60,831 nucleotides of DNA from Bacteroidota bacterium (GTDB lineage Bacteria > Bacteroidota > Bacteroidia > Bacteroidales > UBA12481): positions 1 through 60,831 of the forward strand of contig JAYEFL010000334.1 in assembly GCA_034658635.1 (NCBI GenBank), in the 5' to 3' direction. The position numbers were made by a program, and so were the translations under genes. The notes below the pieces were generated by a model. It did no database searches, was not told the DNA's origin, and saw only the letters and a list, made by a program, of their open reading frames with translations. Position 1 is the stretch's first letter; every line of letters starts with the position of its first letter. Shown here in pieces: positions 632-56,378 of this stretch.

Positions 632-2509
632 ATGAAAATATTTCCTAAATTATATTTTATTCTCTTTATACTGACTTTCAGCCTTATGGCTGCCGGACAA
701 ACTGAACTCAATCAGCCGGTAAGAACTAGTTATGACTTACTGAATAGAGAAACGGATACTCTCACAATTGATACCCTAACCGCAGGTTCACAGATATATC
801 ATCCACTATATAAATCATTCCCTTCATGGCACGAATTAGGTAATCTTGGGTTTCCTGCTTTGGCAACTAAATGGAGTGGAATCAGTAAACTGAATGAGCC
901 TTTTTATCTTCAAACTCTGAGCCAATATGCTAATCCGAAAAATGAACTGATTCAATATCAGTCAAAATCGCCCTACTCCCTTCTGAATTACACGTCAGGA
1001 GGAACACAAGACATTAACGGGCAATTCATTCGTGCTGTTTTTTCTCGCCCGGTTGTTCCAGGTATCAGGTTTACTGCATTACTTGATTTTGTAAACTCCC
1101 CGGGGCACTACAAAGGGCAAAATGCTAATCAATCATCATTCTCAGTTAATCTGGATGTTCAAAAAGAAAGGTACTTTCTTAAAGTGGGAGTAGAGACCTT
1201 AAAATTCAATCTTGGCGAAAATGGTGGCATTCTAAATCCGTCTGGTCTTGCTGATGCTTATGCCAAAACAGATGTGCAGGTATCTCTTAATAACGCGGCT
1301 TCAAGCACCTCATGGACCATTATTCAAGGCAGGCAGGAGTATGATATATTTGCATCTCCTGTGCAGGATTCCACTGATAGCGTGTCCTATATTAATCCCT
1401 ATATTATTAAGGCTAAGCCAAAGCTGTTTCATCATTTTAATTATCAGTTATCTAAAAGACTATATAAAGATGCTCAGAGTTCAGCCAACACTTTTTATAC
1501 TGACTATCTGCTTAATGATAATCAGGCCCAGGATTCACTTGGCTTTAATAGCTTTAATAACCGCTTAGGTATCTTACATTCAGGTTTGTACGGTGATTCT
1601 GCTCAGTGGATGGCCCAGGCAGGCGTATTCCATGTTCTGTCACTTTGGTATGCCAATGAATTGTCTGGTAACTTTCAGCAATTCGGAATTTTTGGAAATG
1701 GTCAGATAGAAAATGAAATATGGAGAGCTTCTCTAAATGCTAAATTGCAGCTATTAGGATATGGAGTTGGGAGTTATGAATTAGATTTCACTGTAAACAG
1801 AAAAGAGCCATCGGAAGCCTGGGATCTGAGTTTTGGCGTATCTTCAAAAATGGAACAACCATCTATGTTCTTTCAGATCTTTTCAGGAAATCATGATAGA
1901 TGGTTAAAAAAGATGAGGAATCAGCAGGAGCAGAGTGTACAATTCAATGTTAAGCAAAACATATGGAATTTGTCAGCAGGAGGAGGTGTGAACCTGATTA
2001 GCTCCTGGGTCTATTTTGATTTGCTTGCCAAGCCACAACAAGCAGAATCCTCAACGATTCTGGGCTCTGCATTTCTAGAGAAGTTCTTCCAGGCAGGTCC
2101 TTTCAGATCAAAAAACATGATTCTGGTTCAATACACTCCTGCCAAAGAAATTCCATTGCCTCTTGTAGTGGCATCCACCTCAACATATATGCATCATGAT
2201 CTTTTGTTTCCTAAAACCAATGGTAAGCTTGAGATTGAATACGGACTGGATCTCAGATATTGCACTTCATACCAAGGGTATGCATACAGGCCTTCAACCG
2301 GAGCCTTTCATTTGCAGGATCAGCAAAAAATGGGAAACTACCCATATTTGGATATCTTCCTGATATTGCGTGTAAAAAGAACCAGGGTATTCGTGAAGTG
2401 GGAACATGTAAATGCTGGCTTTACAGGAGATAATTTCTTTCCTGTTTTAAATTATCCGCTTAAGGAAAGGTTTTTAAAGTATGGAGTATACTGGCATTTC
2501 TATGATTGA
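632..2509 (+). CDS. Putative outer-membrane porin (Porin_10-like)
   Basis: Signal peptide, NLGxP and ENGGI motifs, C-terminal GNYPYLDIF...YGVYWHFYD. Start moved from 596 (inside the terminator) to in-frame ATG 632. Confidence 0.75.
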   Translation: MKIFPKLYFILFILTFSLMAAGQTELNQPVRTSYDLLNRETDTLTIDTLTAGSQIYHPLYKSFPSWHELGNLGFPALATKWSGISKLNEPFYLQTLSQYANPKNELIQYQSKSPYSLLNYTSGGTQDINGQFIRAVFSRPVVPGIRFTALLDFVNSPGHYKGQNANQSSFSVNLDVQKERYFLKVGVETLKFNLGENGGILNPSGLADAYAKTDVQVSLNNAASSTSWTIIQGRQEYDIFASPVQDSTDSVSYINPYIIKAKPKLFHHFNYQLSKRLYKDAQSSANTFYTDYLLNDNQAQDSLGFNSFNNRLGILHSGLYGDSAQWMAQAGVFHVLSLWYANELSGNFQQFGIFGNGQIENEIWRASLNAKLQLLGYGVGSYELDFTVNRKEPSEAWDLSFGVSSKMEQPSMFFQIFSGNHDRWLKKMRNQQEQSVQFNVKQNIWNLSAGGGVNLISSWVYFDLLAKPQQAESSTILGSAFLEKFFQAGPFRSKNMILVQYTPAKEIPLPLVVASTSTYMHHDLLFPKTNGKLEIEYGLDLRYCTSYQGYAYRPSTGAFHLQDQQKMGNYPYLDIFLILRVKRTRVFVKWEHVNAGFTGDNFFPVLNYPLKERFLKYGVYWHFYD

Positions 2510-3134
2510 TTTTTGTCCGGATAAAATCAGGGAAAAGCTAATTTTGGGCTTGCCCGGAGTTTCAGGCCAGCAAAAAATGGCTCCTTCTGTTCGTTTTTCG
2601 GGAGATCATCTGCCGGATCCGGAATTATCGCGTCAGAGTAGTGTTCTTATTCTTCTATTTCCTCAGAATGGAAGTTGGGGAACTGTACTTATTGAAAGAA
2701 CCTTGTTCGGACCGCATGCCGGACAAATATGTTTCCCGGGAGGAAAGCAGGATCATGATGATCAATCTGAATTATTAACTGCACTTAGGGAAGCAAATGA
2801 AGAAGTTGGCGTCAAACAGGATTCAATTAAGATTCTTGGGCAATTGTCTAAGCTTTTCGTGCCAAATAGCAATTTTTGGATCAGTCCGTTCATAGCCTGG
2901 GTAGATTTTGTGCCTGATTGGCAGCCTAATCCCTCTGAAGTGAAATCAATAATAACTGTAACCTTGCCTGATTTATTTGATGATTTAAATAAGAAGCGAA
3001 AAACTCTATCCAGAAACGGAGTGCATATTAATGCTCCGTACTATGATATTCATGGACACATGGTTTGGGGTGCAACGGCAATGATTATAAGTGAATTTGA
3101 AACTCTATTGAAGCGAAATACTCCTATTTCCTGA
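2502..3134 (+). CDS. NUDIX hydrolase, CoA pyrophosphatase (NudL-like)
   Basis: HAGQICFPGGK...ALREANEEVG Nudix box, NPSEV, VWGATA. Likely start ATG 2502 overlapping the porin end. Confidence 0.88.
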   Translation: MIDFCPDKIREKLILGLPGVSGQQKMAPSVRFSGDHLPDPELSRQSSVLILLFPQNGSWGTVLIERTLFGPHAGQICFPGGKQDHDDQSELLTALREANEEVGVKQDSIKILGQLSKLFVPNSNFWISPFIAWVDFVPDWQPNPSEVKSIITVTLPDLFDDLNKKRKTLSRNGVHINAPYYDIHGHMVWGATAMIISEFETLLKRNTPIS

Positions 3135-4509
3135 ATTCCCGAATAAATTCCTCAACCTCTGGCACTCCTCCCTGGTATACAAGATATCCATTGTATGGTT
3201 CGCGGCTTGTTATTTCATCATTTATCGGTGTAAGCATGATCTCCTTAACCTTATCCAAATCATCAGACTGGCCAAGAGCCCAACCAAGTTTAATAAATGC
3301 TGCTTCAGGAAGCATGTTTTCTAATGGAATAACTCCTTTAGCCATTAGTTCTCTTCCAGTTTCATAAACGAACATATGAACATAACCCCATATGGTTTGC
3401 AATGTCATGTATATCGCCACCCCTTTCTCTTTTGCTCGTTCAATGGCTGGATATAATTCTTTATTTACATGTCCTAGTCCTGTGCCAACAATGATTATCC
3501 CTTTGTATCCCAGGTCAACAAGAGAATCAATCGTATCCCGATGCATATGTGGGTAGAAGTAAATCATTGTCACACGATCTTCAAAAAAAGGATATATTTC
3601 TACATTTCTGTCTTTTCGACGGTGATTAAATTCTTTTTTCAGGGCTTTAACTTCTCCAACCTTTACTGTTGCAATGGGGATATCACCAATTGTTCTGAAA
3701 GTAGATCTGTATGAGGAATGCATTTTTCTAACCCTGGTTCCACGGTGCAGGAAAGCGTAATCATCAGAGGTTGGACCAAACATACAAACCATTACTTCAG
3801 CTATCTGCCCATGACCAGCTGCATAACAGGCGTGCATAAGGTTAAGAGCTGCATCAGAAGAGGGTCGGTCAGATGATCGTTGAGAGCCTACCAGAACAAT
3901 TGGTACGGGCGAGTTCTGAACCATAAATGACAGAGCATTGGCTGTGTGATGAAGGGTATCGGTTCCATGTCCTATGACAATTCCATCTACACCATTTTCA
4001 ATTTCCTTCCCTATGGCAATGGCTAAGGCTTTATATTGCTCCGGACCCATATTTTCAGAGAAAACAGCAAATACTTTTTCAGTGTTCAGATTGCAGATGT
4101 CTGCCAGCTCGGGTACTGCGCCATAAAGTTCTCCAGGAGAAAAGGCCGGGATAACAGCCCCTGTTCTATAATCGAGGCGACTGGCAATTGTTCCTCCTGT
4201 TCCAATAAGCTTAATTCTTGGCAGATTTTCTGTATAAGGGAATTCCTTTTCCGGAATTTTGTAATTGGCTTTGAAATAATCAATTTCCTTAATGGAAATA
4301 ATTGTGCTGACAGATATTCCTATATTATATCCGGTTTCTATTTTGATCACAATGTGAATCTCATCATCGTTTTCTGCTCTTGGAAGAACTGTTCCTTTGA
4401 ATTTTCCACGGCTGGTATCAAATTCCGCTAAGCCCCATACTCTGACATTGAACTTTTTCAGCATTTTCAGAGCTACTCCTCTATATCCTTGAAAAATATC
4501 TTCACTCAT
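3124..4509 (-). CDS. gatD: Glu-tRNA(Gln) amidotransferase subunit D (archaeal-type)
   Basis: GatD-specific N-terminal domain (GTVLPRAENDDEIHIVIKIETGYNIGI) plus type I asparaginase fold with TGGTIASRLDYRTGAV, HGTDT, GSQRSSDRPSSD, RKMHSS, GTGLGH. Confidence 0.95.
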   Translation of the reverse strand: MSEDIFQGYRGVALKMLKKFNVRVWGLAEFDTSRGKFKGTVLPRAENDDEIHIVIKIETGYNIGISVSTIISIKEIDYFKANYKIPEKEFPYTENLPRIKLIGTGGTIASRLDYRTGAVIPAFSPGELYGAVPELADICNLNTEKVFAVFSENMGPEQYKALAIAIGKEIENGVDGIVIGHGTDTLHHTANALSFMVQNSPVPIVLVGSQRSSDRPSSDAALNLMHACYAAGHGQIAEVMVCMFGPTSDDYAFLHRGTRVRKMHSSYRSTFRTIGDIPIATVKVGEVKALKKEFNHRRKDRNVEIYPFFEDRVTMIYFYPHMHRDTIDSLVDLGYKGIIIVGTGLGHVNKELYPAIERAKEKGVAIYMTLQTIWGYVHMFVYETGRELMAKGVIPLENMLPEAAFIKLGWALGQSDDLDKVKEIMLTPINDEITSREPYNGYLVYQGGVPEVEEFIREFRK

Positions 4510-6488
4510 TGTTTCTCAATTTTCTGTTGAACCAACTGACTTAATCCTGCCAGAGAAATATTTCCAAGAGCCTGATTTCTGATTTGTCCCATCAGCCAAT
4601 CCCGGGTTGCATTATCATCACCTGATTTTCGTATTTCTTTGAATTTTTCTAATAAAAACTCTACGGGAGCTAACAGTGTTTCCTGCTTCCTTTTCCTGAA
4701 TTTCAAACTAGTTAGAACCGAGGCCATATCCATGTTTGGATATTCCATTATAATGGGCAACATAGCTTTGGCTATCATTACGTCCATCTTTTGCTGAGTA
4801 ATAAATGAGAATAACTCGTATAATTGTTCATATGAGAAGTCACTATGAGGAAACCTCTGGCCTTCCTGATATTTCATGAAATGAGCCATGAAGATTCCCA
4901 GCCATTTTGGTGTGATATTAAAATCATTGTGTATGCGCTCTATTAATTGAACCAGGTTCTTTTTTAGAAGATAATGAAAAGTATCTGGTGGAATATCCCA
5001 GTTTTTCATCTGTTCATAACGTACGTGAATGTCAACCGGCATATTCTGACAGAGTTCTTCAATATAGTCTTCATTCAATGGGATAGGAGCTGAGTCAGTA
5101 TCCGGATACATCCTGTCAGCTCCTGGTAACACTCTTTCAAAAATTGTTGTTCCATCAGGTAAGCCTTTTCGGGTTTCACCAGGAACTCCTTCCAAAGCCA
5201 TAATGCATCTTTCTTCAATCGTAAGGAGAGCAGTTGGTATATCTGATTTTGGCCCCCAGAAAATTATTTGGGCATCTTTATCCTTAGCTGATAGTAATTC
5301 ACCTATCTCTTTGAAATTGATTCCTGTTTCCTCTATGTTGAAGGCCTCTGAACTGGTCATGTTTGGCTTTTCAATACATGCGATCACCTTAAGTCTGTCG
5401 CTGATCTCATTTGCAAAGCACTGTCCGGGCTGAGTGAAGTGAGAAAGAATTCCTGCAAATCCAGGAAGATTGACTGCATATATTTTTTCTCTGTCCTTTT
5501 TGGCCTGAACAATTGGGGGGTATTTACTCCCAAGTCTTTCAAAAGATAAAGGTACAGACTGGATGTTCCAATTATCGGGCAAGCAATTTCGCTTAATAAG
5601 TTTACCCCTGATAGCCAGCAGAGCAAACTGCCTGAAAGATTCATTGTGACTGAGAAGAGGAATCCACTTATTGTGGGCTACCCCCTTGATCTCAACTCTT
5701 GTTCCCCCGCTGCAACTCACGTTCACATCTTCTCGTCCACTTCCAATACCGGTTCTGACTTTCCCCGTGCTCCGGTTAAGGAACCGAATGTGTTCAGCTG
5801 CTTCTCTGAGTTCAAGAGGCGTCTCCATGTCTGGGTAGGTAACAGTCTCAATAAGAGGCATTCCCAGGCGGTCAGTTTTGTATATTCGGGTATGTCCAAT
5901 GTCAGAAATCTCACGGCAGGAATCCTCTTCCAGGCTTAATTGAATCAATCTGACTTTTTTATTTGATAGTTGAATTTCACCTTCAACTCCGATAATTGCT
6001 GTTCTCTGGAAACCGGTTGGTATGCTTCCATCCAAATATTGTTTCCTGGTAATATGAACTTCTCCAACAAGGTTCAGGTTGGATAAATGTGAAATCTGAA
6101 TTGCATAATCCAGAGCTTCACTGTTAATTATGAAGGGTGGGGTATCATCAATATCATAGGTACAGGCTGTTTGATTATTTAGTCTGTAAATGATTTCCTT
6201 TTTTGTACGGAACTCCATCAAAGCTGTACCATCGTATTCACCCATCTCTGAGAGAGTGGGACGCATATGCCGGATGATTTCTCCATCGAAATCTTCATTG
6301 TTATGATATATGCCGGCAGGGCAGTGGCAGAATAGTTTCTGCTCGGTTTTGAGTTGCTGATGAACTTCTAATCCGGATTTAAAACCTATTCTTTTCCAGT
6401 CTTTTAAGCTGGCTTTTTTAAAAGGAACGAAGCCTATGGCTTTACGGGTCCTTTCGTAATTATCTTTAGGATCTGGTGTTTTTTTCAT
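4506..6488 (-). CDS. gatE: Glu-tRNA(Gln) amidotransferase subunit E (archaeal-type)
   Basis: GLEVHQQL..KLFCxCP, RPTLSEMGEYD, DGS..GFQRT, LEEDS, DRLGMPLIE, RSTGKV..GIG..REDVNVS, RVEIKGV, a long central insert, and GVPGETR..LPDGTT..RVLPGADRMYPDTD. 660 aa, too long for GatB. ATGA overlap with gatD. Confidence 0.95.
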   Translation of the reverse strand: MKKTPDPKDNYERTRKAIGFVPFKKASLKDWKRIGFKSGLEVHQQLKTEQKLFCHCPAGIYHNNEDFDGEIIRHMRPTLSEMGEYDGTALMEFRTKKEIIYRLNNQTACTYDIDDTPPFIINSEALDYAIQISHLSNLNLVGEVHITRKQYLDGSIPTGFQRTAIIGVEGEIQLSNKKVRLIQLSLEEDSCREISDIGHTRIYKTDRLGMPLIETVTYPDMETPLELREAAEHIRFLNRSTGKVRTGIGSGREDVNVSCSGGTRVEIKGVAHNKWIPLLSHNESFRQFALLAIRGKLIKRNCLPDNWNIQSVPLSFERLGSKYPPIVQAKKDREKIYAVNLPGFAGILSHFTQPGQCFANEISDRLKVIACIEKPNMTSSEAFNIEETGINFKEIGELLSAKDKDAQIIFWGPKSDIPTALLTIEERCIMALEGVPGETRKGLPDGTTIFERVLPGADRMYPDTDSAPIPLNEDYIEELCQNMPVDIHVRYEQMKNWDIPPDTFHYLLKKNLVQLIERIHNDFNITPKWLGIFMAHFMKYQEGQRFPHSDFSYEQLYELFSFITQQKMDVMIAKAMLPIIMEYPNMDMASVLTSLKFRKRKQETLLAPVEFLLEKFKEIRKSGDDNATRDWLMGQIRNQALGNISLAGLSQLVQQKIEKQ

Positions 6489-6515
6489 GATGATGAGCGA
6501 AAAACGAGTCCGAAT

Positions 6516-7760
6516 TTAATCAAATTTTATTGTTTTTGCCGGACTGATTTTTGAGATAATTCCTGATGGGATTACCAGCATTACTAGCGTAATCAGTAGT
6601 GCTCCAAAATTTAGAAGAAGGATATGAATGGGATTCAGGTTGATAGGTACAGTGTCAACAAAATAGGATGCAGGATCAAGAGGAATTATTTTGAACCAAT
6701 CCTGGATAAGACAAATAGAAATGCCAAGCAGATTTCCGAGGAAAAGTCCAATGCTGATGATATATGCAGCCTGTATCAGGAATACTTTTTGCAGACTTCT
6801 GGTGCTGGCCCCTAGCGCTTTCAGGATGCCAATCATACTTGTGCGGTTAATAATAAGGATTAGTAAACCTGATACCATATTGAATCCGGATACCAAAATC
6901 ATAAGTGCCAGAATAACCCAAACGTTTGTATCGGTTAATTTCAGGAAATCAAAAAAACCGGCAGATATTTCCCTGACCGTCTGCACATCCAATCCATCTC
7001 CACCTTCAGCCAATTTGTTTACCGTTATCTCAGAGAGCTTTTCGGCAGTTGTTTCCAGATACTTATCATCAGAAAGAATAAGTTCATAACCTGTTATTTG
7101 CTTATCGTTCCAGCCACTAACTTTCTGGATGTGTCTAATGTCACAAAATACAATCAAGCGATCGAATTCTTCTAGTCCTGTACTATAAATTGCGCCAACC
7201 ACAAATGGACGGGCAGCCCGGGTCTCCGGGATAAAATAGGTTCGCATCCGGTCGCCAATTTTTAGCTTTAACAGAGAGGCAAGAGATTCAGATATGATAA
7301 CTTCATCAGAGATTGTAGAATCATTGAAGGGTTTTATTTCACCTGAAATCAGGAATCTGGATAGGAAATTGTAGTTGTATGAATCGTCAATTCCCTTAAG
7401 TACAATGCCTTGCAGCTCAGGTTTTGCGTTGATAATAGCTGCCTTTGTAGCAAACCTTTGGACATGGATAATTTCAGGGATTTCAGCGAATTGCTTTTCG
7501 AGATTATCGTCTGCATTGATTGGGGCTGTTTCAAAGGAAGTATTATTATCGAGGTTAACAACCTGAATGTGAGAACTAAAACCCACAAGTTTGGCAGTAA
7601 TTTCCTTCTTAAACCCAGTCAGAATTGCCACAGATAGTATCATTACTGTGAGACCCAAAGCAATTGCAATGATTGCAGTGCCCACCAATGGTTTGGTTTT
7701 ATTATTTTTGTTGGGCTTACTGGAAATTATTCTCTTAGCTATAAATAATTCGAAATTCAA
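6516..7760 (-). CDS. ABC transporter permease, LolC/E (FtsX/MacB) family
   Basis: MNFELFIAKR start, TM1 plus periplasmic domain, IGILKALGA motif, LDPASYFVDTVP, ISPAKTIKFD end. Confidence 0.9.
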   Translation of the reverse strand: MNFELFIAKRIISSKPNKNNKTKPLVGTAIIAIALGLTVMILSVAILTGFKKEITAKLVGFSSHIQVVNLDNNTSFETAPINADDNLEKQFAEIPEIIHVQRFATKAAIINAKPELQGIVLKGIDDSYNYNFLSRFLISGEIKPFNDSTISDEVIISESLASLLKLKIGDRMRTYFIPETRAARPFVVGAIYSTGLEEFDRLIVFCDIRHIQKVSGWNDKQITGYELILSDDKYLETTAEKLSEITVNKLAEGGDGLDVQTVREISAGFFDFLKLTDTNVWVILALMILVSGFNMVSGLLILIINRTSMIGILKALGASTRSLQKVFLIQAAYIISIGLFLGNLLGISICLIQDWFKIIPLDPASYFVDTVPINLNPIHILLLNFGALLITLVMLVIPSGIISKISPAKTIKFD

Positions 7761-7774
7761 ATACTCATATTTAG

Positions 7775-8980
7775 ATGTTGAACAAATGTACTAAACTAAG
7801 CGGGCTTTTTTTTGTGATTATGAGTTTGTCTGCCCATCTTTTTGCTCAGAATCCAGGTGTCATTCTTAAAAAACAACAAGTTATTTGTGGTGCTGACAGA
7901 ACGGATTCTTATTTACCGACACTCGCAGGCAAGCGGGTTGGACTTATCGGAAATAAGAGTTCTCAGGTTGGGCCGGTACACTTGCTGGATACTTTGTTGA
8001 GAAGTGGAATAGAGGTAGTCTCAGTTTTTTGTCCGGAACATGGTTTCCGTGGCGAGGGAGAGGCTGGGGAGAAGATAGATAATTACAATGATCCGCTTAC
8101 CGGGATCCCTGTAAAATCATTATATGGTTCTAATAAAAAGCCTGAAGCAGAGGATTTGAAGGGAATTGACATTCTTGTTTTTGACATTCAGGATGTTGGT
8201 GCAAGGTTTTACACTTATATCTCGACATTACATTACGCGATGGAGGCTGCTGCTGAAAATGGCATCCCGCTTATGATCTTTGATCGTCCAAACCCTAATG
8301 GTTTTTATGTTGATGGTCCGCTAAGACAGCCAGGGTTTGAATCATTTGTGGGCATGCACCCCGTTCCTGTAGTTCATGGCATGACGATTGGTGAGTATGG
8401 CGAAATGATCAATGGCGAGAAATGGTTGGCCAAGGGTATTCTTTGTGATCTGGAGGTTATTTCCTGTGATAATTATGATCACTCGACGGAATATCTCCTT
8501 CCTGTCAGACCATCACCTAATCTTCCTAACCAAATTTCCGTGTATTTGTATCCATCCCTATGCTTGTTTGAGGGAACAATTGTAAGTATTGGCAGGGGAA
8601 CCATATTTCCTTTTCAGGTCTACGGTCATCCTGAATATCATGGATCTTTCTGTTTTTCACCTGAACCAATCCCTGGAGCAAGCATGAATCCAAAATGGAA
8701 AAATACTTTATGTCAAGGAGTGGATTTGCGCGAAACAGGTCAATCATTGATCTTCAGTAATCCTGTATTACAGATTGAATGGCTAATAGATATTTATAAG
8801 GATTTAGATAAACCAGATAATTTTTTCACTTCATATTTTGATACTCTTGCTGGCTCTTCATCGTTAAGGGAAATGATAATCGAAGGTCAGACCGCTGAAG
8901 AAATTCGGCAGAGCTGGTCATCTGAGCTTTCTGAGTTTAGGAAAATACGACAGAAGTACTTGCTATATGCTGAGAATTAG
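7775..8980 (+). CDS. DUF1343 family exo-beta-N-acetylmuramidase (NamZ-like)
   Basis: PEHGFRG, SLYG, FDIQDVGARFYTY, DRPNP, HGMTIGE, PSPNLP, GRGT motifs. True start may be ATG 7820. Confidence 0.88.
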   Translation: MLNKCTKLSGLFFVIMSLSAHLFAQNPGVILKKQQVICGADRTDSYLPTLAGKRVGLIGNKSSQVGPVHLLDTLLRSGIEVVSVFCPEHGFRGEGEAGEKIDNYNDPLTGIPVKSLYGSNKKPEAEDLKGIDILVFDIQDVGARFYTYISTLHYAMEAAAENGIPLMIFDRPNPNGFYVDGPLRQPGFESFVGMHPVPVVHGMTIGEYGEMINGEKWLAKGILCDLEVISCDNYDHSTEYLLPVRPSPNLPNQISVYLYPSLCLFEGTIVSIGRGTIFPFQVYGHPEYHGSFCFSPEPIPGASMNPKWKNTLCQGVDLRETGQSLIFSNPVLQIEWLIDIYKDLDKPDNFFTSYFDTLAGSSSLREMIIEGQTAEEIRQSWSSELSEFRKIRQKYLLYAEN

Positions 8981-9845
8981 ATTGATTTTGTGTGGGATAT
9001 TGTTTGTGAGTAGTGTTCAGTCGCAAACCTCAAATCTTAGATTATTTAACTACTTCGAATTATTTGGAGGGATAGGAACCAGTCATTATTTTGGAGATAT
9101 TGGAGGTGCCGGGACACGCTGGAACGGTTTTTTTGATAGAATTGATTCTTTCAGGGATTTTGATCCCCTTGAAACCCGGATATCAACTTCCTTTGGAGCA
9201 AGGTACATGCTGAACAGGAGCTTTGCTGTTTCAGGAAGGCTTTCTCCGATATGGCTGAGTGGCAACGATGCCGGGTCTTTCAATTCAGAGCGAGCTTATT
9301 ATTTCAATTCTTTTCTCACTGAATTGTCTGGCCAGGCTGAACTTTATTGGCTGAGTCGCTATACTGGTCTGAATCCTTATTTCTTTGCGGGATTTGGAGC
9401 AATAGCATGGTATTCTAAAGTTAAAAAAGCTGATTTCCAGAACTATGTGTCTACTGGAAATGTTTTCCTGGGCGGACTTGGATTCCGGTATTCAGCTAAT
9501 AAGGCCTGGACCCATTCATTTGAGTTAGGATATCGGTACAGTTTGACGGATTACATAGAAATGTATAAAGGCAGCAGCAGATGGAATGATAGTTATTATC
9601 TTCTTCAATATAATTTATCATATCACTTTACACGGGGAACAATTTATAACAGGAGAGGGCTCGTAAGGAAAAACTGGTGGGAGCAACGGAAGAAAGACGC
9701 ACTATCAGAAGGTGATCTCAATATTGAGATAAACCAGGCTATTGATCCGGCTGACGGAGAATTGTCTTCTCGTGAAAGGAGGCAGGTTGCCCGGTATCTA
9801 AAGAAAATATCTCGCAAAAGAAAAAGAGAAAGAAATCATTTGTGA
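8967..9845 (+). CDS. Outer-membrane beta-barrel protein (DUF6089/PorG-like), copy 1, with basic C-terminal tail
   Basis: Signal peptide, G.G.SHYFGDIGG, ELGYRYSLTDYIE, DSYY strand pattern. Confidence 0.65.
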   Translation: MLRIRLILCGILFVSSVQSQTSNLRLFNYFELFGGIGTSHYFGDIGGAGTRWNGFFDRIDSFRDFDPLETRISTSFGARYMLNRSFAVSGRLSPIWLSGNDAGSFNSERAYYFNSFLTELSGQAELYWLSRYTGLNPYFFAGFGAIAWYSKVKKADFQNYVSTGNVFLGGLGFRYSANKAWTHSFELGYRYSLTDYIEMYKGSSRWNDSYYLLQYNLSYHFTRGTIYNRRGLVRKNWWEQRKKDALSEGDLNIEINQAIDPADGELSSRERRQVARYLKKISRKRKRERNHL

Positions 9846-9900
9846 TTTTAATCGGTAATACTTTTATCTTTGTCCAACTTTTAACAAATATCCACAAGTA

Positions 9901-10605
9901 TTGGAATTTCGTAAGCTTATAGTCGCAATTAGTTTATTTTGTTTGCCGCTTTTGTTACAGGCACAGGTTAATGCAGCTTCATACTACCGTAGTATAGAGG
10001 TGTTTGGGGGAATGGGCACTACCCATTACTTTGGCGAGGTTGGAGGACCTGGTGATAGTTATTCAGGCTTTTTTGCTGCTCTGGATAATTTGGGTTTTGA
10101 CCCCATGCAATCTCGTTTGGGGTGGAGTTTTGGTTCCCGTTTTGAATTCCGCAAAGATATGGCTGTAACTGTCTCACTGAATCCATTATGGATTGGTGGC
10201 AGCGACAAAAACTCTGCACGTGAACAACGGGGTTATGCCTTTGATGCAATTGTGGTTGAGGGCAGCCTTAATTATGAGTACTATTTTGCCCGACGAACAA
10301 CCGGGCTGGCTCCTTACGGTGGTTTTGGCTTGGCTGCTTCTATTTATCGCTTTAAACCCAAGCAAGAGCAATGGTCAAGTTTGTACTATTCTCCGATAAT
10401 GATTTATACAATCGGAACCCGCTTACCCAGCCGTTCACGCATTACTCATGGGATTGAGCTGGGATTTCACTACATGTTTACAGATTTTATGGATGGATTG
10501 AATGGAAACATGAAAGTGGGAGACAGTTATTATTTTGTCAAGTATCTGATCAATTTTGAATTAGAGAAAACGTTTGTGTACGATCATAAAGGATTGATAC
10601 GATGA
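9901..10605 (+). CDS. Outer-membrane beta-barrel protein (DUF6089/PorG-like), copy 2
   Basis: Paralog of the previous gene (GTTHYFGEVGG, ELGFHYMFTDFMDG, DSYY); TTG start after TATCTTTG at 9865. Confidence 0.65.
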   Translation: MEFRKLIVAISLFCLPLLLQAQVNAASYYRSIEVFGGMGTTHYFGEVGGPGDSYSGFFAALDNLGFDPMQSRLGWSFGSRFEFRKDMAVTVSLNPLWIGGSDKNSAREQRGYAFDAIVVEGSLNYEYYFARRTTGLAPYGGFGLAASIYRFKPKQEQWSSLYYSPIMIYTIGTRLPSRSRITHGIELGFHYMFTDFMDGLNGNMKVGDSYYFVKYLINFELEKTFVYDHKGLIR

Positions 10606-16181: not shown

Positions 16182-17681
16182 ATGAAGGAGGGTATTTACA
16201 GTGCTAATATTCTGGAGCAATATCTTAAGAAGCCAGCACATAGTTTTACACATATTGATATAATTCGCTTTATTGATGAGAATGGGATAGAAATGCTCAA
16301 TTTCAGATATGTTGCTGAAGATGGGAAGCTGAAGGTTCTTAACTTTGTTATTAATGGTCGTGCTCATCTTGAATCTGTACTGTCAACAGGAGAAAGAGTC
16401 GATGGATCCAGCCTTTTTTCTTATATCGGGGCAGCATCAAGTGATTTGTATGTGGTGCCAAGATATAAAACGGCTTTCGTGAATCCTTTTGCTCAGGTAC
16501 CTACCCTTGATATTCTATGTTCATTTTATGCCAGTGATGGAAAGCCCCTTCAGAGTGCTCCTGAATACATTCTTAGGAAAGCTCATGAAAGATTCAAGAG
16601 TGAAACGGGCTTTGTATTCAAGGCTATGGGTGAATTGGAATATTATGTTCAGGGAAAGAAAGAGGAGATGTATCCTACAGATGATCAGAAGGGCTATCAT
16701 TCAGCAGCACCATATTCTAATTACGAGAACCTGCGCTTGGAGGCGATGGATTTAATATCTGCTTGTGGTGGGAAAATTAAGTATGGACATTGTGAAGTTG
16801 GTAGCTTTGCTACTGATGCTGAAAGTTTTGAGCAGCACGAAGTTGAGTTCTTGCCAGTGGAAGTGGAAGATGCAGTTGATCAATTGATTGTGGCTAAATG
16901 GATTTTGCGACAGTTAGGGGATAAATATGGCGTAAATCTGAGTTTTGCACCTAAGATTACTGTTGGGAAGGCCGGTTCAGGATTGCATGTTCATATGATG
17001 CTGACAAAAGACGGCAGAAATGTGATGGTCGAAAATAATCAGCTTAGTGAATCCGCCCGTAAGGTAATTGCCGGTTTAATGGATTTGGCGGCTCCTTTAA
17101 CGGCTTTTGGCAATACTATCCCCACTTCTTACCTGCGTTTAGTACCTCACCAGGAAGCCCCTACAAATATTTGCTGGGGCGACAGGAACCGATCAGTTCT
17201 TGTTAGAGTTCCTCTTGGATGGCTGGATGCTCATAATATGATTGAAGACGCAAATCCTCAGGACTCCTTTGGGGACAAAGTATTTGACAGTAAGCAAACA
17301 ATTGAAATACGTTCTCCTGATGGTTCAGCCGATTTATATCATTTGTTTGCCGGACTGGTGATGGCAGCTCAACATGGTATAGAAATGCCAGATGCTTTGA
17401 AAAGAGCCAGCGAATTGTATGTGGATGTCAATATTTTCAATGAGGAGAATAGTGACAGGCTGGCCGAGCTGGCACATCTTCCTGATTGCTGTGAAGAATC
17501 AGGGCTGATATTACAGAAGTATCGGCATGTCTTTGAGAAGGATGGAGTCTTTCCATCCGGAACTATCGACAATTTTATCCGGGTTTTGTGCGAGTTTAAA
17601 GACAGAGGTCTTAGTGAAAGGATATATGGCAAGACTGAGGAGATCAGGAAGTTGGTTTACAAATACTTACATCATATGTAA
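16182..17681 (+). CDS. glnA: Glutamine synthetase family protein (type I-like)
   Basis: DGSS, GELEYY, HCEVG..QHEVEF, APKI..GKAGSGLHVH, RLVPHQEAP, WGDRNRS..RVP, IEIRSPD. Confidence 0.88.
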   Translation: MKEGIYSANILEQYLKKPAHSFTHIDIIRFIDENGIEMLNFRYVAEDGKLKVLNFVINGRAHLESVLSTGERVDGSSLFSYIGAASSDLYVVPRYKTAFVNPFAQVPTLDILCSFYASDGKPLQSAPEYILRKAHERFKSETGFVFKAMGELEYYVQGKKEEMYPTDDQKGYHSAAPYSNYENLRLEAMDLISACGGKIKYGHCEVGSFATDAESFEQHEVEFLPVEVEDAVDQLIVAKWILRQLGDKYGVNLSFAPKITVGKAGSGLHVHMMLTKDGRNVMVENNQLSESARKVIAGLMDLAAPLTAFGNTIPTSYLRLVPHQEAPTNICWGDRNRSVLVRVPLGWLDAHNMIEDANPQDSFGDKVFDSKQTIEIRSPDGSADLYHLFAGLVMAAQHGIEMPDALKRASELYVDVNIFNEENSDRLAELAHLPDCCEESGLILQKYRHVFEKDGVFPSGTIDNFIRVLCEFKDRGLSERIYGKTEEIRKLVYKYLHHM

Positions 17682-41441: not shown

Positions 41442-42614
41442 ATGTCTTGTCTCTTTGATTTTAAATATATCTCGATAAAAGCTTCTGTTGCAGGTGGGTT
41501 TTTTCAGGAATGGCGAGAAATTGCCATAGAAGCCACACGCTTTGTTGAGAAGAGCCGGTATTCGAATCAGACTTTGCAATTAATATGGTTTTTTAAACCC
41601 CCAAAAGATGAGAGTTGGCACAATCTCCAACAGTCAATAGGGGAATTGGAGGAGATGAAGCAGATTAAGTCAATAACTCAAACTTTCATTTCTCAACCAC
41701 CAATTGGAGATAGCCAGGTAGAATTGATCATAAGGTATATAAATGAGCAGACAGATCAGCTGGGTGTTCAATTTAAAGAAGTTAAGGGAAGCCAATATAC
41801 TTGCGTTGTTTCAGGTGAAAACTGCTGGGTTGTAATGGGAGGATTGGGGTGTTCAGAGGGGAGTCTTGAGGTTTCAGGGCAGGCTAAATGTGTCTTTTCT
41901 GAATTGCAGATAGTACTTGCCAAAGAAAACCTTGGTTTCAAACACCTCGTGCGACAATGGAATTATATAGAAAACATTGTAGGTTTCTCTCATCAGAGTG
42001 ATCGTGAGTATCAGCATTATCAAGAGTTTAATGAGATCCGGGCAGAATGGTATTCTGAAAACGGACTAGTACATGATTTTCCGGCTGCAACTGGTATCGG
42101 TACCCACGGAGGAGGAGTGATTATTGAAGGAATTGCTGCCAGACTGGATGCATCGTACAAATTACTGCCTATTGGGAACCCAAATCAAGAGAATGCTCAT
42201 TCTTATTCAAGAGCCAAGCTAATCGGAACTCAAGCCAGTTCGGCACCTCTGTTTGAGCGGGGTAAAATGATCTTTGGAAACAATGAGGGATATATATGGG
42301 TATCCGGTACTGCTGCTATCAGGGGAGAAGACTCTGTGTCAGGAAGTATCTCTGATCAAACCCGTGTAATCTGCGAAAATATTGATGAACTCATTTCTCA
42401 ATCTAATTTGAAGAAAGCAGGGCTTATAATGAATGATTTTGTCATTAAGCCAGTTTATTTAAGAGCTTATGTAAAGCCTGGTCAGGATGGATTATTGGTT
42501 GAAGAATTTATCCTAAAACGATATCCTGATGCACTGGTTCATGTTCTTTATGCAGATATTTGCCGGGAGGAGTTGTTAGTGGAAGTTGAGGGGGAGTTTA
42601 GAGTTGCACATTAG
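41442..42614 (+). CDS. Rid-fold protein, chorismatase FkbO/Hyg5-like
   Basis: RQWNYI, YQEFN..R, PAATGIG, NPNQ..A..Y, PLFER, SGTAAI.GE, ADICR.ELLVEVEG. Confidence 0.75.
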   Translation: MSCLFDFKYISIKASVAGGFFQEWREIAIEATRFVEKSRYSNQTLQLIWFFKPPKDESWHNLQQSIGELEEMKQIKSITQTFISQPPIGDSQVELIIRYINEQTDQLGVQFKEVKGSQYTCVVSGENCWVVMGGLGCSEGSLEVSGQAKCVFSELQIVLAKENLGFKHLVRQWNYIENIVGFSHQSDREYQHYQEFNEIRAEWYSENGLVHDFPAATGIGTHGGGVIIEGIAARLDASYKLLPIGNPNQENAHSYSRAKLIGTQASSAPLFERGKMIFGNNEGYIWVSGTAAIRGEDSVSGSISDQTRVICENIDELISQSNLKKAGLIMNDFVIKPVYLRAYVKPGQDGLLVEEFILKRYPDALVHVLYADICREELLVEVEGEFRVAH

Positions 42615-53906: not shown

Positions 53907-56378
53907 ATGAGACGATGGATACTTGGTATAGCATTTATGTTAGTTGGATGGTTGACATCTATGCAAGCCCAGCAAGGTGCAGAAGGACCGGATTTTCCTC
54001 CTTATCCGGATGAGCGGATTGCTGTCTCAAATCGCTTAAAAGTTCTTCCCTTAAAGGTAGATAATAGTCAGTTTGAATACTTTCCACCAATAATCAGTCA
54101 GTTAGGCTGGAGTTGTAATCAGGCCAGTTCGATAGGCTATTTGCTGACATATGAATTGAACCGAAAGCGTGAGTTGGATGGAGAATTGCCTGAAAATCAG
54201 TACTCCCCGTCTTATCCTTGGAATTTTCTAAGTGCGGAATCTAAGACTACAGGCGTTAGTTATTTTGATACCTGGGAGATAATTAAAGCCAATGGCTGTC
54301 CGAATATTATTGATTTTCCTTATACCGGTGTAAATAGTGTTTGGATGAATGGCTTTGATAAGTACCTCAGAGCCATGAAAAATAAGGTGGTGAATAATTA
54401 TTCTATTTCAGTAAGTGATGCTGCAGGACTGCGAGTGCTTAAAACATATTTATTTAATCACAACGACTCATTCAGATTTGGTGGGCTTGCTAATGTGCAG
54501 ATAGCCTCCAGTGGATGGGCGATCCGGCTTTTGCCATCTGATTCATACGATTCTGGCACTGCAGTGATTACCTCTTTTGGAAGAAATGTTGGCCATGCAC
54601 TCACTATCGTAGGATTTAATGATCAGGTGCAGTATGATTTTAATGGAGACGGATTATACACTAATGATCTTGATCTTAATGATGACGGAGAGGTGACCAT
54701 GGCAGATTGGGAAAAGGGTGCCTTGTTGGCAGTCAATACATATGGAAAAGACTGGGGAAGCAGGGGGAAAGCCTATATTCCTTATCGCTTGCTAACACGA
54801 TATGGTTACGAGGGAGGTATTTGGAATCGCTCTGTTCATGTGGTTGATGTGCTTCATAATTATGAACCCGCTCTGGTATTAAAACTGGAGATTGCACATT
54901 CAAACAGAGGCATGTTGCGTGTTACCCTTGGATGCTCAAATGATCCCGAAGCTGAATATCCAGAGTATATACATGCTTTCCCAATGTTGAATTACCATGG
55001 AGGGTTAAGCAGTTTAGGTGCCCAAGGCGATGATAGTCATATGCATTTAGGACTTGACATTACTCCGGTTCTGGCTCATCTTGAGTCTGGAAAACCAGTC
55101 AAATTCTTTTTGATGATTGATGAACGTGACCCACTTGATCTTGCAAATGGTTCGGTTTACAGTTATAGTATTATTAACTATTTGGAAAATGATACTTTAG
55201 TTGCTGAAAAATCGGGCGTGTTCCCAATCAAAGCTAATCAAACAACAATTCTGGAAATAGGTCATGAATTGAATTTTGATCCTGTTCAGGTAGCAGATTA
55301 TCAGATTCAATATACAAGTGAGAATCAATGGCTGAGTGTGCCTCTTTACGCTAGTGGTATTTCAGGAAGTGCTAACTGGGAGATTTATCCTGACTACCGG
55401 GAGGATACTACTGGCCGTGAATTTCCTGAATTATCAGGTGATTATTTGCCCTTCTATACATCATCTGATGGGTTCCTTACTATTGATCTTCCCTTTGATT
55501 TTCCTTTTTACGGAGAGATGTTTGATAAACTTTATGCTGATGAATCCGGATATCTGTACCTGCAAACTCAGTATCAGGATTATCCATACTCCATAGATAA
55601 AGAGCTGGTATTTAGACAGCGGAAAAGTATTGTTCCTTTTGGTCAGGATCTGATGTTTTACCAAGAAGGTAACGGCATATATTACGAATCAACAGATTCT
55701 GTGGCAAAGATTTTTTGGGATTGTTCTGCACAGATTGGGTCAAGCCAGGGGCCTTTTCGTTTCGCCTGCTATTTGTATCCTGATGGTCTGATTGAGTTTC
55801 ATTATGGAGGAGATCTTAATGGATCCGAACGCTCAGATTATCGCAGTGGCCTCTCACGGGGTAATGGTAAACAGGTTTTTGTCACTACTTCGTCGAATCT
55901 TGGAAAAGTACACTCTGATAAGCTGGTCAGGCTTATTCCTTACCAGATTCCACCAAAAACAAAGATCGAATCAAACCGCTATCTACTTACGCGGCCTGAA
56001 GAAAAAAATCAGTTTTATGAGATTAAGGTTAAGGTTACTGATATAAATTTCCAGGAATCCTTCGGGCTTATCCCAATATCTACACTTGATTTTTCCTCAC
56101 CTGATATGCTTGCCACTGCTTTTCCTAACCCATTTACAGAGTCTACAAGCCTGAGTTTTGTAGTGAAAGAAAAATCACTGGTCAGGATTCAGATTTTTGA
56201 TTTATTTGGCCGGCATTTGAGGGATTTGCTTGTTGAGGAATTCGAGAAAGGGATTCATCAGATTGATTGGGACGGACGCTCAGATCATGGTTCAGAATGT
56301 CTTCCGGGAGTCTATTTGGTTCGTATTTTTATTGGTGAAGAAAAACAAAGTGTAAAGATTCTTAAAAACGCTTGCTAA
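53907..56378 (+). CDS. Secreted papain-like (C1A) cysteine protease with T9SS/FlgD-type C-terminal domain
   Basis: Signal peptide; SQLGWSCNQ (Gln/Cys), GHALTIVGF (His), NTYG..WG..G.AYI.Y (Asn); C-terminal FPNPF...IFDL.GR...WDGR...PGVYLVR...K. Confidence 0.78.
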   Translation: MRRWILGIAFMLVGWLTSMQAQQGAEGPDFPPYPDERIAVSNRLKVLPLKVDNSQFEYFPPIISQLGWSCNQASSIGYLLTYELNRKRELDGELPENQYSPSYPWNFLSAESKTTGVSYFDTWEIIKANGCPNIIDFPYTGVNSVWMNGFDKYLRAMKNKVVNNYSISVSDAAGLRVLKTYLFNHNDSFRFGGLANVQIASSGWAIRLLPSDSYDSGTAVITSFGRNVGHALTIVGFNDQVQYDFNGDGLYTNDLDLNDDGEVTMADWEKGALLAVNTYGKDWGSRGKAYIPYRLLTRYGYEGGIWNRSVHVVDVLHNYEPALVLKLEIAHSNRGMLRVTLGCSNDPEAEYPEYIHAFPMLNYHGGLSSLGAQGDDSHMHLGLDITPVLAHLESGKPVKFFLMIDERDPLDLANGSVYSYSIINYLENDTLVAEKSGVFPIKANQTTILEIGHELNFDPVQVADYQIQYTSENQWLSVPLYASGISGSANWEIYPDYREDTTGREFPELSGDYLPFYTSSDGFLTIDLPFDFPFYGEMFDKLYADESGYLYLQTQYQDYPYSIDKELVFRQRKSIVPFGQDLMFYQEGNGIYYESTDSVAKIFWDCSAQIGSSQGPFRFACYLYPDGLIEFHYGGDLNGSERSDYRSGLSRGNGKQVFVTTSSNLGKVHSDKLVRLIPYQIPPKTKIESNRYLLTRPEEKNQFYEIKVKVTDINFQESFGLIPISTLDFSSPDMLATAFPNPFTESTSLSFVVKEKSLVRIQIFDLFGRHLRDLLVEEFEKGIHQIDWDGRSDHGSECLPGVYLVRIFIGEEKQSVKILKNAC

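Follow-up and report, generated by a model that had tools for sequence, protein, structure and literature searches.

A GatDE-Type, Probably tRNA-Dependent Amidotransferase in a Bacteroidota Genome and the Bacterial Clade to Which It Belongs

Introduction

GatDE is a two-subunit, tRNA-dependent amidotransferase for which structures have been solved from the archaea M. thermautotrophicus (2D6F) and P. abyssi (1ZQ1). [quoted passage not shown] Each of the papers cited in this article was available in part, and what is attributed to them is limited to those parts. Here we describe a gatE-gatD pair located in a stretch of 60,831 nucleotides from a Bacteroidota bacterium (contig JAYEFL010000334.1 of assembly GCA_034658635.1, positions 1 to 60,831; the window). 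The proteins encoded by this locus are confirmed as members of the GatDE family that are intact and reside on a Bacteroidota chromosome. No description of a bacterial GatDE was found in the literature searched, in agreement with the initial annotation of this DNA; subscription journals were mostly outside the search, and an earlier mention is possible.

Several features of the better-known systems are important for the comparison. In archaeal GatE, the tail is the part that binds the D-loop (PMC2811023), while the insertion domain fits glutamyl-tRNA synthetase (GluRS) and excludes ND-AspRS, an aspartyl-tRNA synthetase of the non-discriminating type (PMC2943598). GatCAB, which contains the GatE paralogue GatB, is kept for asparagine synthesis beside glutaminyl-tRNA synthetase (GlnRS) and asparaginyl-tRNA synthetase (AsnRS) in bacteria without an Asn synthetase, Bacteroidetes among them (PMC4206432).

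Identity and Domain Organization of GatE and GatD

The gatE gene (4506..6488, minus strand) encodes a protein of 660 amino acids that is identified from its open reading frame, curated models and alignment to structure chains as the kinase/transamidase subunit of a tRNA-dependent amidotransferase. The gatD gene (3124..4509, minus strand) encodes a type I asparaginase-like glutaminase subunit of 461 amino acids that also carries the GatD N-terminal domain. The gatE stop and the gatD start overlap in an ATGA (4506..4509, minus strand), suggesting that translation of the two genes is coupled. Both full-length frames and their overlap had been reported in the initial annotation and are confirmed here.

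Each protein scores above the curated cut-offs for its own family. GatE passes the NCBIfam model PRK04028 (461.6 vs 456) and TIGR00134 (408 vs 319.55); it also matches Pfam GatB_N, and it failed all six of the GatB models listed. GatD passes PRK04183 (499.7 vs 310) and TIGR02153 (498 vs 324) as well as the asparaginase model TIGR00519 asnASE_I (374.7 vs 260.5), and its N-terminal domain matches GatD_N (PF18195) with 43.5 bits against a cut-off of 25.7. For both proteins, the GatD and GatE models score far above the asparaginase and GatB alternatives. The best matches by sequence among solved structures are the archaeal GatDE chains 2d6f/1zq1, with E-values of 6e-86 for archaeal GatE (9e-20 for the best GatB) and 5e-116 for archaeal GatD (7e-39 for the best asparaginase). 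The initial annotation had asked whether the best hits might be ordinary GatB and asparaginase, and this is not the case.

Every motif named in the initial annotation was located, and the two domains it had called intact, the GatD N-domain and the GatE insertion, are matched by profiles. GatD contains TGGT at residue 104, HGTDT at 181 and KMH at 262, while GatE contains GLEVHQQ at 39, LEED at 186, DRLG at 206 and PLIE at 211. Alignment to 2d6f places His43, Glu187 and Glu214 of GatE at the positions of His15, Glu157 and Glu184, the Mg ligands given for GatE of M. thermautotrophicus (PMC2330236). The metal and kinase catalytic residues, Glu187 and Glu214 among them, are invariant across 86 bacterial GatE rows, and the three GatD motifs are at least 95% conserved in 69 bacterial GatD rows.

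GatE is made up of the cradle, an insertion of 140 amino acids (about residues 296-435), a helical domain and a YqeY-like tail. The insertion, compared with 29 amino acids in GatB, matches, with an E-value of 9e-22, a profile derived from the GatE insertions in 83 rows that do not belong to the bacterial clade; its score against Pfam GAD is 17.8 bits, under the cut-off of 23.4. The tail (PF02637, GatB_Yqey; E 2e-5) scores 24.8 bits, just under the cut-off of 27, and aligns through to the end of 1zq1. The helical and tail domains of bacterial GatE are present at full length, and the tail motif W.MG...A.GN is conserved among bacterial GatE rows. The helical region (residues 501-600) is poorly conserved, with 4 of 100 columns at 95%.

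Distribution and Phylogeny of Bacterial GatDE

The initial annotation treated this pair as a peculiarity of its lineage. The locus is instead an ordinary member of a clade that is represented by a GatE-type gene in 133 of 301 Bacteroidales genomes (a family-stratified sample, at least 90% complete). In this sample 142 genomes matched GatB_N and were sorted into GatE and GatB by score and frame length, with one genome (G338) left unclassified; 16 genomes have GatB, and 8 have both. Among relatives in the same class outside Bacteroidales, all 33 matching genomes have one GatB-type match each and no GatE. These relatives come from a second, phylum-wide sample with few members of the order and 150 of 265 matches listed, which was used for this purpose only. 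The clade also extends to other phyla, and its carriers include 12 genomes of Aminicenantes type (7 titled so, and 5 titled 'uncultured Eubacteriales' and grouped with them by neighbours and GluRS), which have GatE and GlnRS and no GatB. In a search not limited to bacteria, at least 8000 database proteins match GatE at E ≤ 1e-50. As the initial annotation had anticipated, databases already name many such proteins GatE, and the GatE of Ancylomarina is among the 120 matches listed. The cultured carrier Ancylomarina salipaludis (L018) makes the substrate and role of the enzyme directly testable. Two further observations concern gene copies: L069 and L078 (one genome) and G323 show two gatE copies per genome, which may reflect contamination or duplication, and L127 (G212:C224) has a GatB-type match inside an open frame of 1115 amino acids, perhaps a fusion of gat subunits.

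Conservation of the pair was examined in the best 80 loci from GTDB genomes, of 284 candidates encoding a relative, all 80 titled bacteria or metagenome assemblies. The gatD gene lies within the fetched flank in 68 of these loci and directly after gatE in 66. No other neighbour is conserved across the 80 loci outside close kin, and a conserved partner gene pointing to a pathway was consequently rejected, as only gatD recurs.

GatE trees were built from 150 rows and from a 59-row subset and rooted on the long GatB branch; the labels bacterial and archaeal are inferred for most rows. The host GatE falls within one clade with support of 1.0 (150 rows) and 100 (59 rows). Proteins assigned by name to a CSSED10-310 bacterium and to a deltaproteobacterium belong to the same clade. 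On these trees, GatDE in bacteria appears as a large, old and monophyletic clade. The nearest outside row belongs to a Heimdallarchaeota cluster (support 0.94 and 99, respectively). However, when all 35 outside rows were constrained to form one clade, the tree gained 42.8 log-likelihood units over the quick free tree (p-AU 0.927), and a Heimdallarchaeota origin is therefore not upheld as a direction. Because this constrained tree scores better than the free tree with its Heimdallarchaeota neighbour, the root is unsettled, and the analysis does not decide between an old transfer from archaea and retention since LUCA.

The clade is also distinguished by clade-wide GatE changes, namely M75, T88, T110, Y111, D115, Y151, I156, C191, T205, D463 and the loss of Gln240. 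Tyr151 is found in the clade as in GatB, while 82% of outside rows have Val; Gln is present at the Gln240 position in 0 of 58 rows inside the clade and 79 of 83 outside. Alignment suggests that the clade has residues of its own near the active site (Tyr151, Ile156, Thr110-Tyr111, Asp115 and Cys191).

Roughly four in ten of the Bacteroidales genomes sampled carry a member of this clade, which contradicts the archaea-only status of GatDE. The finding also reopens the questions of whether GatDE dates back to LUCA and persisted in some bacterial lineages, and why an amidotransferase is maintained beside GlnRS and AsnRS. Databases already label bacterial GatDE; what is new is that carriers are mostly without asnA and asnB (a contrast confounded by kinship), that some active-site residues are specific to the clade, and that the tree does not decide between transfer and retention since LUCA. 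The interest lies in the clade, the asparagine link and the open root rather than in this single locus, which is ordinary within the clade.

Routes to Gln-tRNA and Asparagine in the Host Genome

Of the interpretation offered in the initial annotation, a true GatDE in Bacteroidota stands, whereas the proposal that the lineage makes Gln-tRNA through GatDE in place of glnS is refuted; its alternative, a backup or repurposed enzyme, stands as a candidate. The host genome (a 4.51 Mb draft in 422 contigs, 96% complete) encodes a full-length GlnRS of 567 amino acids on contig C87. Of 80 carriers taken from the 133 for testing, 77 likewise pass the GlnRS model TIGR00440, and a GlnRS-sized gene is present in 49 of 50 other carriers. 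AsnRS is present in the host and in 76 of 80 carriers tested (65 of the 133 and 15 others). The host genome was also checked for the subunits of GatCAB: in this draft there is no amidase match for GatA, and the sole GatB_N match is gatE itself, with GatC outside the search. The draft gave no match for asnA, and an E. coli-type AsnB was found with 921 bits on contig C340. Two glutamine synthetases are present, the second type III-sized on contig C43. A need for glutamine was rejected as an explanation for GatDE, as all five of the carriers tested hold two glutamine synthetases.

The only tRNA(Gln) found in the draft, tRNA(Gln)UUG, has a U1-A72 pair (the CUG isoacceptor was not found), and U1-A72 is seen in every copy recovered from relatives. 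Because GlnRS is present and tRNA(Gln) carries U1-A72, the host has the GatDE enzyme and not the whole archaeal Gln-tRNA pathway. The GluRS gene gltX is not in the 422-contig assembly; a closed genome from the same family (G303) has both GluRS and GlnRS. The host tRNA(Asn) has G1-C72 (G000 C288:1710-1784). The host and three sampled family members all have AsnB, and the three with a recovered tRNA(Asn) start with G1. Within this asnB-bearing family, G1-C72 is also seen in L217 and L219, compared with U1-A72 in most of the order.

Proposed Function

The favoured reading, to which we assign a probability of roughly 0.4, is that GatDE acts as a spare tRNA-dependent amidotransferase in the place of GatCAB and beside GlnRS, with Glu-tRNA(Gln) as substrate and repair or backup as its role. 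Because the catalytic residues are invariant or conserved in the 86 GatE and 69 GatD rows and the tail motif is kept, we argue for an enzyme that is probably active and probably still binds tRNA. In the proposed mechanism, GatD would free ammonia from Gln or Asn, and GatE would hold the misacylated tRNA through its tail and cradle. GatE would then use ATP to phosphorylate the side-chain carboxyl, followed by amidation. The substrate would be the ancestral one, Glu-tRNA(Gln), made when GluRS mischarges tRNA(Gln), and GatDE would either repair the mischarged tRNA(Gln) or back up GlnRS. [quoted passage not shown] Enzyme activity, tRNA dependence, the substrate and the altered tRNA recognition are what we infer from comparison of sequences.

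Several observations point to Glu-tRNA(Gln). The insertion is intact. The host's family has no need of an Asp-tRNA route because AsnB is present and tRNA(Asn) starts with G1, yet its gatDE is intact. GatE carriers rarely have GatB (8 of 133), and the 33 class relatives have GatB only, consistent with a role in GatCAB's place. The genes glnS, gatE and gatD are adjacent in one genome (G116). Finally, the 12 Aminicenantes-type carriers each have two divergent GluRS genes, and the second has Gly in 5 of 12, Lys in 1 and Arg in 6 at the Arg358-like column (T. thermophilus numbering), which was located with E. coli and T. maritima as alignment references.

Two of these features merit separate description. 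In G116 (L350:2189-7387) glnS, gatE and gatD are consecutive on one strand, with glnS directly upstream. In the Aminicenantes-type genomes (L159/L160, L161/L162, L163/L164, L332-L349), the Gly-bearing GluRS paralogue is a candidate tRNA(Gln)-charging enzyme. GluRS proteins of close relatives of the host (L146-L150) have lineage-specific low-complexity insertions of up to about 45 amino acids in the anticodon-binding region.

Other results weigh against a role on Glu-tRNA(Gln). The presence of GlnRS in nearly all carriers tested leaves the need for GatDE unclear, and the host's own gltX was not found in the assembly. The GluRS of all 12 Bacteroidales-type carriers examined has Arg at the Arg358-like column, a discriminating signature (PMC2978374). 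The tRNA(Gln) is U1-A72 throughout, not the archaeal A1-U72, and glnS is adjacent to gatE in G116 only. Furthermore, the asnA/asnB pattern of the carriers is left unexplained by this role.

Alternative Functions

It is this asnA/asnB pattern that suggests asparagine supply, in which the bacterial clade would have widened or switched its specificity to Asp-tRNA(Asn), a substrate that a single, relaxed AspRS would provide, such that Asn is made on the tRNA. We consider this a serious possibility, albeit one that we would not expect to prove correct. Of the 133 carriers, 29 have asnA or asnB (in one case asnA is a broken remnant), compared with 114 of 159 genomes in which both GatE and GatB are missing. 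In 104 of the 133 neither gene is found, and 97 are without asnA, gatB and an asnB of E. coli type. When a single genome represents each family, 12 of 57 carriers and 50 of 71 non-carriers have asnA or asnB. This scarcity mirrors the GatCAB enzymes kept for asparagine synthesis beside GlnRS and AsnRS. The clade-wide active-site changes, including the GatB-like Tyr151 and the loss of Gln240, also favour asparagine supply, as does a full-length asnA directly after gatD in L056, L083 and G114.

The contrast is tempered in several respects. Related genomes are not independent, and a small number of events or a peptide-feeding lifestyle may underlie the difference; among the 159 non-carriers, 45 likewise have neither gene. 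The asnB search scored at most four candidates per genome, and further AsnB-like paralogues are present in each of the five carriers tested whose genomes are closed or near-closed. Another set, of 47 carriers, included 13 with asnA and 11 that passed the asnB cut-off. The archaeal GatE insertion excludes ND-AspRS (PMC2943598). The host itself has AsnB, gained or kept, and there asparagine supply by GatDE would be either redundant or combined with action on Glu-tRNA(Gln). Two further observations concern asnA-like genes: a divergent AsnA variant of 376 amino acids is convergent right after gatD (L212:7017-8147, L056, L083), and this variant, which scores low, also occurs in G245 and G343, which have no gatE match and whose family members have gatE.

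No second AspRS was found in the five closed or near-closed carriers, and their single AspRS has Leu at the site of P. aeruginosa His31, which speaks against asparagine supply. His31 and Gly83 are taken as marks of a non-discriminating AspRS, a rule that the literature search did not return. GatB-bearing Bacteroidota AspRS (4 of 5 read out) lack these marks just as the carriers do, which suits asparagine supply; because of this, the signature excludes nothing and was set aside as uninformative in this phylum. The first base of tRNA(Asn) was rejected as a marker of an asparagine role, as U1 is shared by 20 of the 22 carriers lacking asnA and asnB and by 19 of 19 non-carriers that have these genes, and thus does not separate the two groups; in two carriers without asnA and asnB (G165 and G189) the recovered tRNA(Asn) starts with G.

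A broader form of the proposal, which we hold tentatively and regard as doubtful, is that a deep bacterial GatDE, possibly kept since LUCA instead of acquired from archaea, had its active site and tRNA recognition re-tuned to amidate Asp-tRNA(Asn), either by itself or in addition to Glu-tRNA(Gln), and that many environmental Bacteroidales and Aminicenantes rely on it as their chief source of Asn. If so, bacteria would have a third way of making Asn, and GatDE would be neither an archaeal signature nor a Gln-only enzyme.

The asnA/asnB pattern could also be explained without a relaxed AspRS or a tRNA identity element if GatE uses ammonia from GatD to amidate free Asp, thereby standing in for AsnB, or else some other carboxylate that is small or part of the cell envelope. 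The clade-specific pocket changes and the poorly conserved helical region are compatible with such a tRNA-independent reaction, which we consider unlikely. Both the helical domain and the YqeY-like tail are retained in full and a motif in them is conserved, the 80 loci contain no conserved neighbour for another pathway, and no GatB or GatE protein is known to act without tRNA.

That the pair is a relic, kept mainly as a regulated asparaginase/glutaminase (GatD) with transamidation no longer used, is improbable. GlnRS, AsnRS, AsnB and two glutamine synthetases meet all canonical needs in the host, and 168 of the 301 sampled genomes of the order are without gatE. On the other hand, the metal and kinase residues of GatE are invariant, no internal stops are listed among 134 GatE-type matches, and the host genome already has a separate asparaginase-like gene (contig C189).

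Very improbable is the canonical option, in which GatDE supplies Gln-tRNA(Gln) and replaces glnS and gatCAB; it is rejected for the host by the full-length GlnRS, provided that this GlnRS is active, in spite of the missing gatA and gatB matches. Three of the carriers tested have no GlnRS match. One (G108, a 96%-complete draft) has gatE with neither gatB nor a glnS match, and the other two, members of a single genus, have GatB as well. These two (G125 and G244; L117, L116, L215) are small genomes with GatB, GatE and AsnRS and no match for GlnRS, asnA or asnB. They are the only carriers seen that need an indirect Gln route, and they have two amidotransferases, as in many archaea.

An assembly chimera or a very recent import of archaeal DNA is rejected as having a negligible chance, despite the 422-contig draft: a 12,481-base contig from the sequencing run of a separate study holds all 5401 bases of the stretch around the locus with 245 differences and no gap, the order lolC-gatE-gatD-nudix is repeated in 17 of the 80 loci, GC content (0.39-0.41 at the locus, the same as the rest and flat across the window) and gatE/gatD codon usage (36th and 65th percentile of similar-sized genes of the genome) are native, and identity to rows outside the bacterial clade is only 27-37%. 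In a possible source run, the stretch lies in two pieces that overlap at 6509-6538, and no single contig spans it. The chimeric join that the initial annotation had raised for checking was thus not found. No RNA datasets holding the locus are listed.

Neighbouring Genes in the Window

Upstream of gatE, after a gap of 27 nucleotides, lies a co-directional LolC/E-like ABC permease gene (6516..7760, minus strand). Downstream is a convergent Nudix gene (CoA pyrophosphatase-like; 2481..3134, plus strand), which overlaps the 3' end of gatD by 11 nucleotides. Both are syntenic in close kin only and lie outside the GatDE system. The gatE flanks contain host markers such as a pair of PorG-like genes and one DUF1573 gene, and the closest named relatives of the locus are titled Bacteroidales or Bacteroidota. 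The two tandem PorG-like (DUF6089) outer-membrane genes (8967-10605) lie between namZ and an aminotransferase gene, score under the T9SS PorG cut-off and are present in few close relatives only. A type I-like glutamine synthetase gene (16182-17681) is located 10 kb from gatE. Farther along the window, a gene for 390 amino acids (41442-42614) combines FkbO/Hyg5-like chorismatase and RidA-like domains. An open reading frame of 823 amino acids (53907-56378) with no Pfam match at E 1e-5 directly follows tRNA-Phe and precedes a cluster of enoyl-CoA hydratase, 3-hydroxyacyl-CoA dehydrogenase and thiolase genes.

Comparison with Known Systems

Individually, each subunit resembles a more familiar protein. 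GatD passes the type I L-asparaginase (AnsA) model but has an extra N-domain, and GatE matches GatB_N but has the insertion that ordinary GatB lacks at this length. The host's system and GatCAB share the paralogous subunits GatE and GatB, with Tyr151 common to both. As in the GatCAB-bearing Bdellovibrio, Legionella and Deinococcus-Thermus (PMC4206432), most carriers hold GlnRS, AsnRS and an amidotransferase, often with no Asn synthetase. In contrast to GatCAB, the glutaminase of GatDE has an asparaginase fold rather than an amidase fold, there is no GatC, the insertion is present and GatE fails all of the GatB models; moreover, the host has AsnB, and an Asp-tRNA role for GatDE is only a candidate.

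The closest likeness is to archaeal GatDE. The enzymes share two subunits, the GatD N-domain, the Thr/Lys/Asp motifs, the metal ligands, the insertion, the helical domain and the tail, and both pairs of curated models are passed. The differences are that the host is bacterial and has GlnRS and AsnRS, that its tRNA(Gln) is U1-A72 rather than A1-U72, and that its relatives have a GluRS with the discriminating Arg. Finally, GatE carries the clade-wide changes, and identity to the rows outside the bacterial clade lies in the 27-37% range given above.

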